From: Escherichia coli O127:H6 str. E2348/69
Lineage (GTDB): Bacteria > Pseudomonadota > Gammaproteobacteria > Enterobacterales > Enterobacteriaceae
Direction: 5' to 3' (one strand)
DNA: 64,000 bases
NCBI RefSeq assembly: GCF_000026545.1
Contig: NC_011601.1
Shown here: in pieces, positions 6,801 to 12,800 of the stretch
Layout of the letters: every line of letters begins with the position of its first letter
Position numbering within the stretch: position 1 is the stretch's first letter
Position numbers: made by a program

Positions 6801-9800
6801 ACGCTGACCTATGAAGCGGTTAAACAGACCACGGATTACGGTTTCGGTCAGTCGACCTGTGTTGGTATCGGCGGCGACCCGATCCCTGGCTCTAACTTTA
6901 TCGACATCCTCGAAATGTTCGAAAAAGATCCGCAGACCGAAGCGATCGTGATGATCGGTGAGATCGGCGGTAGCGCTGAAGAAGAAGCAGCGGCGTACAT
7001 CAAGGAGCACGTTACCAAGCCAGTTGTGGGTTACATCGCTGGTGTGACTGCGCCGAAAGGCAAACGTATGGGTCACGCAGGTGCGATCATTGCCGGTGGT
7101 AAAGGGACTGCGGATGAGAAATTCGCAGCTCTGGAAGCCGCAGGCGTGAAAACCGTTCGCAGCCTGGCGGATATCGGTGAAGCACTGAAAACTGTTCTGC
7201 AATAAATATCTGTAATAAGAAATAGCCCTCGCCGCTTCCCTCTACAGGAATGGCGAAGGGCTGTCGGTTTCGACATGGTTGGCCATCATATGATGGCCTT
7301 TTTTATGCTTATCGCGATGATTTTCGCTGCGCTATCAGGGTAAATTTATAGTCATCGGTATTAAAAGCGTTGCGGCTATATTCAAACACCCGGCCATCAA
7401 CTAAATATCCACGCGATACTTTTTCAAGAATCGGCTTAGTCTGGCTGATATTAAGCAGACGGCTCATTTCTTCGGTTGGCATCAGAGGAATGATTTCCTG
7501 TTCGCTACGATCGATAACCATTTTCTTCACTTCTTCAATAAAGTGATATTTCGAATTTTCCATGACCTGCCAGGTGAGATCCGGGAACAACGCAAGCGGC
7601 ATCCAGGTTTCTTCCAGCGCCATTGGCTTTTGCTTGCGATAGCGCACGCGCTTCACATGCCACACACGATCCTGTGGGGTGATTTGTAGCTGTTGCTGAA
7701 GAAAATCGTCAGCCGGAATCACTTCGAATATCAGAACTTCACTGTGTGTATCGACGTGACGGTCCGTCAGTTTTTCATCAAAACTGGTTAACTGAAAAAT
7801 ATCGTAATTGACCCGCTCTTCTTTTACGTAAGTCCCGCTGCCCTGAATACTTTCGAGGATCTGCTGTTCAACTAACTGGCGCAAAGCCTGACGCACCGTA
7901 ACCCGGCTGACGCCAAACTCTGTTTGTAGCGCTGATTCAGTGGGTAACGCATCGCCAGGTTTAAGCTCGCCACGCGCAATTTGCTCACGAATGCGATCAG
8001 CAATCTGTCGGTATAAGGGTTTCCGTCCCATGATTTAGCATCTCATTAATACGAATTTAGCCATTATGCCCGATAAATTCATCCTGCAAATAATACAAAT
8101 ACAATACAAATAATTTCAATAAAGTGAAATTGATCACATAATGGTGTTGTTTTATCGGGCACACTGGCGCGACTATAAAAACGATCAAGTGAGGATCATG
8201 ATGAATCTGACGACTCTGACCCACCGCGATGCGTTGTGTCTGAATGCGCGCTTTACCAGCCGTGAAGAGGCCATCCACGCGTTGACTCAACGTCTTGCTG
8301 CTCTGGGGAAAATTTCCAGTACTGAGCAATTTCTGAAAGAAGTGTATTGCCGTGAAAGCCTTGGCCCGACCGCCTTAGGTGAAGGGCTGGCTGTGCCGCA
8401 TGGCAAAACTGCTGCGGTAAAAGAAGCGGCGTTTGCGGTCGCCACACTCAGCGAGCCGCTTCAGTGGGAAGGCGTGGATGGCCCGGAAGCGGTTGATTTA
8501 GTGGTGTTGCTGGCGATTCCCCCCAATGAAGCTGTCTCTTATACACAAATCCCCACCCGGGGATTTGTGATGTCTGTCAGTCTGCTTTAGGGGGACTCTT
8601 TCCATCCGGTAGTTTCCTTCCTCCCCGGCAGCGATTTTTTGAACTTTTTCCTCACCCGTTGATCTTCTCTTATATTTCATTTTCTTCGGGTCTGTTATGG
8701 TACTTTCTGATTGTTATTCATGGGCTAACGAGCAGTTTGGACATGCCCGTCTCGGTGATCCGCGTCGTACACGACGCCTTGTGTCACTGGCCTCTTCTCT
8801 CGCTCAGCATGCAGGTCTTTCTATTGTGAAATCATCCCAGTCCACTGCTCAGGTTGAAGGTGCGTACCGCCTGATACGTAACCCGTCTGTGTCCCCGCAA
8901 GCCATTGCCGAAGCCGGATTTACCGCCACTGTAAGGGCATGTGAGGCTCATCCGCTGCTCCTCGCGCTGGAAGACACCACCACCATTAACTTCAGTCACA
9001 GTACGGCATCTGATGACCTGGGGAATACCACCACTAACCCGAAGACGCGCGGGCTGCTGGCTCACTCTGTCCTGATGTACGCCCCCGACAGCGCCCTGCC
9101 AGTCGGTCTTATCGAACAGCAGCGCTGGAGTCGTGCCACGGACACCTACGGTGTTAAGCACCAGCGAAAAGAACGTCCCTATGAAGAAAAAGAAAGTTAC
9201 CGCTGGCAGCAGGCTTCGGAGCGCATGGCCGAACGGCTGGGGGAGATACAGAAACGGGTAATCACTGTCTGTGACCGGGAAGCGGATATCTGGCATTACC
9301 TGCATTATAAAGTCAGCCACGGGCAGCGCTTCGTGGTGCGTGCAGCACAGAATCGCCGGCTGGAAGAAGCACCCGGCAAGCTCTTCGAACTGCCGGAAGT
9401 CCTGGCAACCGCGGGAAGCCACACGCTGAATGTGATGCAAAAAGGCGGGCGGGCAGCCCGCCAGGCCCGGATGTTCATCAGTTACAGCGAAGTCAGCATA
9501 AAAAATCCCGACAACAGCGGCCAGGCGCTCCCGCTCACGTATGTCTGTTGCCGGGAGCAGGCAGAGGACGGCGCCTGCTGGCATCTGCTGACGTCAGAAA
9601 AAGTGGCGAGTGCCGCCGATGCGCGACGTATCGTCAGCCATTACGAGCGACGCTGGCTGATAGAGGAATACCACAAGGCGTGGAAAAGTGGTGGTACATG
9701 TGTGGAATCGCTGCGAATGCAGACCCGGGATAACCTCGAGCGCATGGTGGTTATCAAGGCGTTTATCGCGGTGCGGGTGCTGGGCCTGCGGCAGGGCGGT

Positions 9801-12800
9801 ATCAGTGAAGAAACACAAAATGACAGCTGTGAGAAAATACTGACGCCGACAGAGTGGAAACTGCTGTGGGTTAAGCTGGAAGGAAAACCGCTTCCGTCAC
9901 AGATGCCGACACTGAAATGGGCCTGTCTGAAACTGGCGAAACTGGGGCGATGGCATGACAGCAAACGCACCGGTCGCCCCGGTTGGGTAGTCATGTGGGA
10001 TGGCTGGTTCAGACTTCAGGATATGGTTGAGGGTTACCTGGTGATGAAGTCTCTTGATCAGGAGATCTGATCAAGAGACAGCCCGGGCGAAGAGGGCTGC
10101 TTTGGTCCACGTCGATCCAATATCGACAGAGACGATTTGCATCAGATTGCCTCTTCAAGAATACGAGTATCAACGTCATGACGTTGGTTGATATCGTGGG
10201 CCATCAGCTGACAAACATCTTCTAAGTCATGACTTGGGGCAAAGACGCGATCAAATCCCATCTCTTTGAATTTGGTTTCCACGTCAGCGAAGTCATGTTT
10301 TCCGACCACCAGGTTACCGCCCACATAGAGCAGGATGTCCCCCAGTCCACGCTCGATGCAGCGTTCGCGCATGCCCAGACAGTCGATATCGCCATGCCCA
10401 TAGATAGAGGAGACGACAATCGCGTCAGCGCCAGTTTCAATGGCCGCATCAATATATTCGTCCTGGCTGACCATTACGCCCAGATTAATGACTCTGAAGC
10501 CATGGTTGCTAAAAACGCGGTCCAGAACTTTATTGCCTACTGCATGGCAGTCCGCGCCAATAACGCCAATCACAAGTGTTGCTTTCTTCATGGGTAATCC
10601 TTTGTAAGACAGAGAGTAAAATAAGTTACACACGTCGTATTTATGGCCGTTCATAACGGCACAGGTTTAATATCACAGGAGTGTCTTTATCTGACCGTAA
10701 TGTTGCAATTGATCTATTTTCAAAATGTCTTTCGGGAAATGATTGTTTAAAGTATGTTGTTAAATTCTCATGTTAATTCAGTGTGTTATGTCAACTAATG
10801 TCATGAATGTTAAATTTTTAAAATTAACTTGATTTGGTGTATTGAGGTATTTGTGATCTACTTCTAATTTGCATTTTAGTGATATGGGTTTAGCCATGAG
10901 TAAATGCATTTCATAAAATTTAAGTCGAATTTCACTGCAATTCATCTCTGCTTAATGTAAAAATAATGTTGAAAATAACAAATGGTTAATGATTCATGCG
11001 AATTATGACCTTAGTTAGCTCTTTTGATTTTTCGTAAAAAAGAGAGGTACATGAAGGTGCTACCAGTATGAGTAACGTTAATCAAAGGTTTTATTACCTC
11101 TGGCAATAACGCAGGCCATTTTCGCGACTGGGTGGATTTAATCAGTATAATCCTCATACAATAGTTCACGATTAACTGAACCGTTAACGGGGATTTGGTG
11201 TTGAAATTTAGAAATGGCGGAGTCAATTAATGAAGACAATATCGAAAAAATGACAGTGTCAGAATTAATTTCAATTAATCCTTCTCGTTGTTGACCAAAA
11301 AAGATATTTATCTTGATTTCATTTGTACTACGGCAATCAATATGTAGTAATTTTTGATCGCTGAGATTTTCTGTTTCATAAATGTTTTTGGCGATAGTCG
11401 GATGAATTGATGCCAGACATCTGCTCAGATAAGCCAGTTCCTTTAGGGAACACCCCGCTGAGTAGAGGATGTCAGAGAATTTTTGTGTGTCAACTGTTGT
11501 CTCTGAAGCGTATGTTGCATTGACAGGAAGGGTGTTGAAAGAGATTTGAGATGGGATCATTATTTAAATCTTTCCGTGAGTAATAAAAATTAATCCCCGG
11601 GCATTGTTTAGCAATATTTGCCACAGGGAATATATAAAAATTAAAGTATTTGATTGGCATCGGTTAACTGATCAATAACCAGTGCCAGATTGGTAAACAT
11701 TTTGAAAAAGCGATACTGGCTCGGAATATCTCTTTCAAAGACGAAACATTCAATGTCATTGTTTGAAAAATAAAGGACTAGTGTTGCTGATTCGTCAGGA
11801 AAAATATGGAAATATATCTGGTTACCAGAAGGAGGATAGTCCAGAAGAAGGGTATCTTTGCCCGTCACATACCTGTTGTGGTCGTGGATGCTGCGCTCAC
11901 ACTTCATCAGAGGTGTCATGATACTCATGTATTCATCTGATGTTAATATATTAAAATCACCATCCATTTTAAAGAAACGATAAAGTAACAGTACATCCTC
12001 TTGCGTAACCGGTTCGTTTGTTTTTAGAGGGAAATAAGTGGGAACCAGAAGATGAGGTTCTAATCTATTTTGTTGAGCGCTATAACTAAATTTGAACATA
12101 AATTCCGGATCGCTCATCAATTGAGCGACATAATTATGCCTGGCTTCAAAAATTTTAACTTTTATCAGGTTAAATAAGTCTGTTTCGTCATCCTGTATTA
12201 AAAGACATTGGCCATAGCAGTCAGGCTTTTTTTCATTATAAGCAGAAACGGTTATTCTGTCAGGAGTGTCAACGTTATATCCAAAAGCCAGATAGTGACC
12301 GTCCTCATCGAGATTTGTTTCCAGGTTATTTAAATTTATCACATGAAGTGTTTGCAATGCTGATTCAATGAGCTGTTGACTCTCTGAGGTAAATGTTTCG
12401 CGCTGCGTTGTATAAAGTGTATCGATTCCAACGACTATCCGATATGGGTCAAGGATGGCGGCAATCATCTTTATTACCTGCACAGTCACGGGTGATGTCA
12501 TTGATTCGTTATCTGTTTTTAGAGGATCATTAGATGGCCAACCTGAGAAGCGATTGACAGCCGAACCGATATTATCAGGACTCATAGCAGCAACCTCATT
12601 GTAATCAAGCGAGGCGCTGAGCGTACTCGGCTATAGAAAAACTAACTTGCAAAAATCGCTCATTTTTCATTTATCAGGCGAAAGTGGTCTCTGTTCACTC
12701 AGAAACAATCACTCCCGCTAAGTCATACCTGTTTCATCGATACATTTAAGTGATTATTACTAATGAAACAATAACATAACGGGCTTACGGCCGGTGCTCA

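Follow-up and report, generated by a model that had tools for sequence, protein, structure and literature searches.

Organization of the sucD-cydA interval in E2348/69

The interval between sucD and cydA of Escherichia coli O127:H6 str. E2348/69 was analysed in a stretch of 64,000 nucleotides of contig NC_011601.1 (assembly GCF_000026545.1; hereafter, the window). In this interval a complete copy of the insertion sequence (IS) ISEc13 stands between remnants of the mannosylglycerate (mng) genes and of the methylaspartate, or glutamate, mutase (glm) genes (Table 1). In the annotation of the NCBI Prokaryotic Genome Annotation Pipeline (PGAP) the gene order is sucD, mngR, a IIA pseudogene, the ISEc13 transposase gene, glmS, two genes for hypothetical proteins and cydA. 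A reading made earlier from the window alone (the original prediction) had described the locus as an IS50-like element that joins a truncated mngA to an orphan glmS.

Table 1. Features of the ISEc13 junction and its surroundings, in coordinates of the window
Feature	Position	Strand	Size or composition	Description
mngR	7309..8031	-		Intact GntR-family repressor of the mannosylglycerate genes (PGAP)
mngA remnant	8201..8531	+	Codons 1-110 plus 1 nt	Part of the EIIA domain
ISEc13, complete	8532..10081	+	1,550 bp	100% identity to copies annotated ISEc13
ISEc13 terminal inverted repeats	8532-8550 and 10063-10081		19 bp each	
ISEc13 transposase gene, intact	8697..10070	+	457 aa	Single open reading frame; WP_000244358.1
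glmL remnant	10082..10142	-	61 nt	Codons 1-20 and 1 nt more; the gene codes for the mutase reactivase/chaperone
glmS	10142..10591	-	149 aa	Intact; B12-binding S subunit of methylaspartate (glutamate) mutase
AT-rich distal island end, retained	10592..13390		34-39% GC	glmS upstream region and two open reading frames, up to the cydA start
Two conserved open reading frames of unknown function	11138-11560 and 11641-12585	-	140 aa and 314 aa	

The intact mngA gene codes for a IIABC transporter of 638 codons. The product of the remnant corresponds to positions 2-114 of 639 in the MngA model (181 bits, cut-off 763), and PGAP lists it as a 'fructose PTS transporter subunit IIA' pseudogene (PTS, phosphotransferase system) without its C-terminus. 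The mngA-like open reading frame (ORF) had originally been placed from 8141 and taken to stop at the IS inverted repeat. The true mngA start is at 8201, and the 149-aa ORF that begins at 8141 has no record as a called gene. The homology to mngA does end at 8531, but the open frame enters the IS for another 19 codons, up to a TAG at 8588-8590, and thus forms a 129-aa fusion ORF.

On the opposite side, glmS is intact but does not directly abut the element, since the 61-nt glmL stub lies between the two. The stub's 20 residues (MQIVSVDIGSTWTKAALFAR) are identical to the translation of the intact reference described below, to which homology restarts exactly at 10082, and its frame continues into the right end of the IS for the residues AVS before a stop. 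GlmS matches the NCBIfam equivalog NF002612 with 254 bits (cut-off 110) over positions 1-147 of 148, the DxHxxG motif is visible in it, and its accession (WP_000710397.1) is identical in strains with an intact cluster. The gene extends from 10591 to 10142; the longer ORF that begins at 10654 is not the gene. The 3' ends of glmS and of the transposase gene face one another.

The ISEc13 element

The annotated copies that match the element at 100% over 1,550 bp are described as 'IS4-like element ISEc13 family transposase', and the accession of its transposase is also given to those of ISEc13 copies in other strains. The transposase aligns over residues 6-453 of 457 with the Tn5 transposase chains 4DM0 and 1MUH (E = 6e-84), and scores 514 bits (cut-off 160) against the NCBIfam IS4-family model NF033590. 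The left end of the element reads CTGTCTCTTATACACAAAT and the right end, reverse-complemented, CTGTCTCTTGATCAGATCT, with the first 9 bases of the two ends identical. Judged by these features, the element is the named ISEc13 (IS4 family, IS50/Tn5 group), a relative of IS50 and not IS50 itself. The Tn5-like transposase and the Tn5-like ends make 'IS50-like' a fair description, from which the fixed 9-bp duplication that the original prediction also assumed has to be removed, since ISEc13 duplicates either 8 or 9 bp (see below). A literature search for ISEc13 returned incidental mentions alone.

Thirty matching places were found in one E2348/69 assembly, equivalent to about 30 identical copies in this strain. 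The copy in the window is set apart from the others only by its flanks, which lack a duplication. Just inside the left end of the IS, overlapping the terminal repeat and upstream of the transposase start, positions 8544-8569 form an 11-bp perfect inverted repeat, in which CACAAATCCCC and GGGGATTTGTG are separated by a 4-nt loop, ACCC. This structure might block read-through expression from mngA, now that this gene is directed into the IS.

Comparison with an intact relative

A 6.1-kb query around the locus was searched against 5,426 complete genomes and matched at 100% over its full length in three complete E2348/69 assemblies and in no other genome. The approximately 30 identical copies of ISEc13 make misassembly, wherein a multi-copy IS has been collapsed, possible in principle. 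Such an artefact is nonetheless most improbable, as the three assemblies are separate and agree completely, and the 129-aa MngA'-IS ORF at the left junction has exact records on 9 contigs in public assemblies, drafts included (a count of contigs and not of independent isolates). The junction is therefore reproduced outside the three complete assemblies as well.

In order to select a reference, the genomes were ranked by the identity of their mngR-mngA' flank, and strain 2022H047 (99.8%) emerged as the closest one with an intact mngA. The O157:H7 strain Sakai was considered as a reference that would contain both mngRAB and the glm island and was rejected since it carries the island only; the same applies to CREC-544 and E7-1N7. 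Between sucD and cydA, strain 2022H047 exhibits the order mngR, mngA, mngB, rtcB, hutU, a permease gene, hutD, hutI, hutG, a HAL-type lyase gene and a LysR gene, followed by cobO, a class I fumarase gene, a symporter gene, DUF4387, AtuA, the methylaspartate ammonia-lyase (MAL) gene, glmE, glmL, glmS, the two hypothetical genes and cydA. The class I fumarase of this island is the FumD mesaconase of Kronen and Berg (PMC4682846).

Both flanks of the element are collinear with 2022H047, with order and strand unchanged. Window positions 6000-8531 correspond to positions 245-2776 of the reference, the identity of 99.9% being maintained within mngA up to 8531, and window positions 10082-14000 correspond to reference positions 27802-31720 (99.6%). 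In 2022H047 these flanks are 25,025 bp apart, and in E2348/69 the 1,550-bp IS replaces the intervening sequence. The breakpoints fall just after codon 110 of mngA, inside the EIIA domain, and at codon 21 of glmL, both exactly at the IS termini. The locus is thus very probably a deletion scar made by ISEc13, at which about 25 kb of accessory metabolic genes were lost, and the alignment bears out the IS-mediated deletion originally proposed.

The loss of both the mannosylglycerate genes and most of the methylaspartate operon had been predicted correctly, but its extent was understated: the hut genes, rtcB, the LysR gene, cobO, fumD and the genes for the symporter, DUF4387 and AtuA are also missing. 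The partners expected for glmS are likewise absent as predicted, since glmE and the MAL gene have no match and only 20 codons of glmL persist.

Loss of the genes rather than relocation

The absence of the genes from the locus would also be compatible with a rearrangement in which the IS marks the breakpoint of an inversion or translocation and the genes reside elsewhere. Inversion breakpoints would also be expected to lack a duplication, and an inversion of this type, with ISEc13, exists in the genome CP148541.1 (see below). A chimeric query was composed of the two E2348/69 flanks and, on the opposite strand, 18 probes of 130 bp, one per missing gene. In each of the three E2348/69 chromosomes it matched exactly one place, the locus itself, compared to four places in the positive control, 2022H047. 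Consequently, none of the 18 lost-gene probes, including those of mngB, MAL and fumD, has a match elsewhere in these chromosomes. A 4.5-kb query of glmS, glmL, glmE and MAL likewise found a single place in E2348/69, with 510 nt retained at the locus, and the catalytic E subunit of the mutase is absent from both the window and the E2348/69 chromosomes. When the 25-kb segment was searched against PLSDB, 19 'plasmid' records matched, none of them from E2348/69; most of the E. coli records among the 19 have sizes in the megabase range and appear to be chromosomes, or fragments of these, under a wrong label.

The probes, the glm query and the plasmid search therefore find the genes nowhere else in E2348/69 than as remnants at the locus, which indicates loss and not relocation. 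Together with the order and orientation of the flanks, which are those of the intact reference, this renders a rearrangement without loss very unlikely. As a candidate for a relocated MAL fragment, we considered the ISEc13 copy beside a gene annotated as 'enolase C-terminal domain-like protein'; it was rejected, as this copy is a simple insertion in dgoD.

A glmS gene that is naturally solitary at this position would have given the locus a different meaning. The four-gene glm query has a match of any kind in 1,135 genomes; at least 80% of the set is present in 1,122 of them and a partial set in 13, three of which are the E2348/69 assemblies. By this distribution, glmS does not naturally stand alone.

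Missing target-site duplication

The bases on the two sides of the IS, CCAATGAAG (left) and CCCGGGCGA (right), differ over both 9 and 8 positions, as had already been stated for the 9 bp. The significance of this difference was assessed with 12 other ISEc13 copies that have the same ends, namely the dgoD copy of E2348/69, a copy in the ibs region of FDAARGOS_144 and 10 copies in CP148541.1. Perfect direct repeats border 10 of the 12 (8 bp in seven and 9 bp in three), such that the absence of a duplication at the window copy is meaningful and supports the earlier view that the copy is not a simple insertion. Old, degenerate ISEc13-like copies near tRNA-Arg have no duplication.

A simple insertion could otherwise have occurred in a naturally mosaic locus that already had mngA' next to a solitary glmS. 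The sucD-cydA interval is indeed mosaic across E. coli, with mngRAB only, the glm island only or both. An insertion of this kind is nevertheless exceedingly improbable, given that there is no duplication, that mngA and glmL are both cut exactly at the IS termini, that no genome was found with mngA' beside glmL' and without the IS, and that a solitary glmS occurs in E2348/69 only.

A 17-bp likeness between the right flank and the flank of the FDAARGOS_144 copy raised the question of a misplaced IS boundary or a shared insertion. Both were rejected, as the latter copy lies at a different locus (ibs/sib) and has its own 8-bp duplication. It was this likeness that led to the target motif described next.

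Apparent target preference of ISEc13

Empty targets were reconstructed for the 10 duplicated ISEc13 copies. The duplicated 8 or 9 bp lie in the loop of short inverted repeats rich in GC, with the pattern CCCYC(T)-N8/9-(A)GRGGG, and several of the stems are followed by runs of T, in the manner of a terminator. Both breakpoints of E2348/69 show this pattern in the intact reference and in the correct register: the mngA site reads ttccccc-CAATGAAG-cgggta and the glmL site gtccccct-CCCGGGCG-aagaggg. The 10 independent sites gave a crude position weight matrix, with 6 positions per side, which was applied to the 71,958 positions of the 36-kb reference. The mngA site (score 6.45) falls within the top 0.22% and the glmL site (14.03) ranks second, compared to leave-one-out scores of 3.9 to 12.7 for the known ISEc13 sites.

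The canonical ends of ISEc13 are thus joined in register to preferred hairpin-loop targets on both sides, which indicates that the transposase made both joints and argues against an unrelated deletion with later arrival of the IS. Beyond this locus, we propose only tentatively, from a motif based on 10 sites of which 8 are from one genome, that ISEc13 may be a structure-guided IS with a strong, predictable and hitherto undescribed hairpin-loop target rule, in which case the end points of its deletions would not be random. The length of the duplication, 8 or 9 bp, is apparently set by the size of the loop. If the rule is true, the sites of erosion in IS-rich enteropathogenic E. coli lineages could be forecast.

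Possible routes of the deletion

Of the routes by which ISEc13 may have produced this scar, we lean towards one in two steps. An ancestor very probably carried a 2022H047-like arrangement between sucD and cydA. Two equally oriented copies of ISEc13 would have entered it, the first in mngA, with CAATGAAG as its duplication, and the second in glmL, with CCCGGGCG or CCCGGGCGA. These identical 1,550-bp copies would then have undergone homologous recombination, by which the interval was excised as a circle, and the circle would have been lost. The remaining single IS would then have its left flank from the mngA insertion and its right flank from the glmL insertion. The approximately 30 identical copies in E2348/69 are an ample substrate for recombination. 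Recombination between copies does occur with ISEc13, as evident in CP148541.1. Two inverted copies lie there about 60 kb apart (within 2,304,717-2,307,290 and 2,365,194-2,367,767), and their 8-bp duplications, CTCCCCAA and CGAACCAG, have been exchanged reciprocally, the hallmark of an inversion.

A single resident ISEc13 copy, in either mngA or glmL, could also have generated an adjacent deletion in one step, by intramolecular transposition to the other site, at a distance of about 25 kb. The product would be identical, a deletion from the exact IS terminus to a preferred target in register, and neither a strain with two flanking copies nor one with either junction alone was found among the 5,426 complete genomes. 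Tn5-type elements, however, move mainly by cut-and-paste, and a copy that excised completely before attacking its own chromosome would leave a broken donor molecule behind, so that a replicative or one-ended variant of the reaction is needed. For Tn5 such a variant is presented as contested (PMC2723962), whereas adjacent deletions that are promoted by Tn5 and start precisely at its termini are documented in the same source and support the one-step route. Recombination between copies is directly evidenced for ISEc13 in CP148541.1. The one-step deletion remains a serious contender, to which we assign somewhat less than an even chance.

Several points weigh against a 25,025-bp deletion that followed two insertions and recombination. 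The two-step and one-step routes yield an identical sequence, which by itself cannot decide between them. Neither junction occurs in complete genomes other than those of E2348/69, and no intermediate was found among those searched. The presumed ancestral content is taken from the nearest intact relative and not from a direct ancestor. The rtcB-hut module, moreover, varies among strains, being present in CREC-544 and 2022H047 and absent from Sakai and E7-1N7, so that 25,025 bp may overstate the true loss. Finally, very small relocated fragments would escape 130-bp probes at megablast sensitivity. The deletion, by whichever route, looks recent, as the accessions of MngR, GlmS and the transposase are the same as in intact relatives.

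Related loci in other strains and at other sites

The sucD-cydA interval is a mosaic hotspot in E. coli, and some genomes contain both modules, with or without rtcB-hut. The mngR gene together with the 5' end of mngA is present in 3,867 of the 5,426 complete genomes (about 71%), and the glm cluster in about 21%. In strain A25 (NZ_CP028750.1), rtcB is followed by a truncated glmE, glmL and glmS, with no IS annotated at the joint. The part from hut to MAL has been removed by at least two different events, since the deletion in A25 is independent of that in E2348/69.

A second junction of interest was observed in NZ_LT827011.1 (at about 3,179,000-3,182,100) and also in NZ_LT903847.1, where two ISEc13 copies lie head-to-tail, without a spacer, between a truncated ygfK and araE. 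Their outer flanks differ. This is another IS-associated deletion junction, which looks like a tandem IS dimer. As the pair is not the best match in the third assembly (CP059840.2), it may reflect variation between laboratory stocks or a difference in assembly.

Retained genes and metabolic consequences

The mngR product matches the NCBIfam model NF007292 over its full length (521 bits), and its protein accession is the same in E2348/69, 2022H047 and A25. The gene is an intact orphan whose target operon is gone. At the opposite end, the same two ORFs adjoin glmS in every strain examined (Sakai, CREC-544, E7-1N7, A25 and 2022H047); they have no match in Pfam, NCBIfam or PADLOC. Overall, the survivors of the deletion appear to be two intact orphans, mngR and glmS, and two stubs, those of mngA and glmL.

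From gene content, E2348/69 would have lost the uptake and hydrolysis of mannosylglycerate, together with the hut genes at this locus and the branch from glutamate to mesaconate and citramalate. The last of these was characterized by Kronen and Berg in 2015 (PMC4682846) as a glutamate-fermentation cluster in O157:H7, in which FumD is a mesaconase. The cluster was found in 26.5% of E. coli, the branch was linked to pathogenic enterobacteria, and the fate of citramalate was left open. In E2348/69, the prototype of enteropathogenic E. coli, about 18 accessory metabolic genes were lost in a single IS-associated event, and the remainders represent annotation traps for metabolic models, since the orphan glmS, the orphan mngR and the 'fructose PTS IIA' pseudogene could pass as functional.

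ISEc13, the island and the process were known beforehand, and the public annotation already marks the pseudogene. The locus is a case of routine IS-driven gene loss and genome erosion and opens no new question. The apparent hairpin-loop rule of ISEc13, together with its variable 8- or 9-bp duplication, is a mildly new by-product.

Comparison with known systems

The size of ISEc13 is similar to that of IS50, which is about 1.5 kb, and its right end is identical to the inside end of Tn5, CTGTCTCTTGATCAGATCT, including the two GATC sites. Tn5 produces a fixed 9-bp duplication with a weak target consensus, as opposed to the GC-stem hairpin loop of ISEc13, and the fixed length is not shared by ISEc13, in which duplications of 8 bp (seven copies) outnumber those of 9 bp (three copies). 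The transposases of the two elements belong to the same fold family, but that of ISEc13 is a clear, distant homologue of the IS50 enzyme and not a near-identical one. At the left end, ISEc13 agrees with the outside end of Tn5, printed as CTGACTCTTATACACAAGT in PMC3347997, at 17 of 19 positions.

Compared to the O157:H7 cluster, glmS and the glmL stub of E2348/69 represent its promoter-proximal end, at the same position beside cydA as in Sakai. Only the S subunit is present in E2348/69, whereas GlmE, MAL, FumD, CobO and the transporter are gone, such that the methylaspartate pathway would be unable to run in this strain. As in IS-mediated deletions of IS-rich enterobacteria, whether by recombination between IS copies or as adjacent deletions of the kind described for Tn5 (PMC2723962), a single IS remains at the junction, the flanks are collinear, there is no duplication and the deletion ends at the IS termini. 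The additional detail at the E2348/69 locus is that both end points lie on preferred targets that are defined by sequence.

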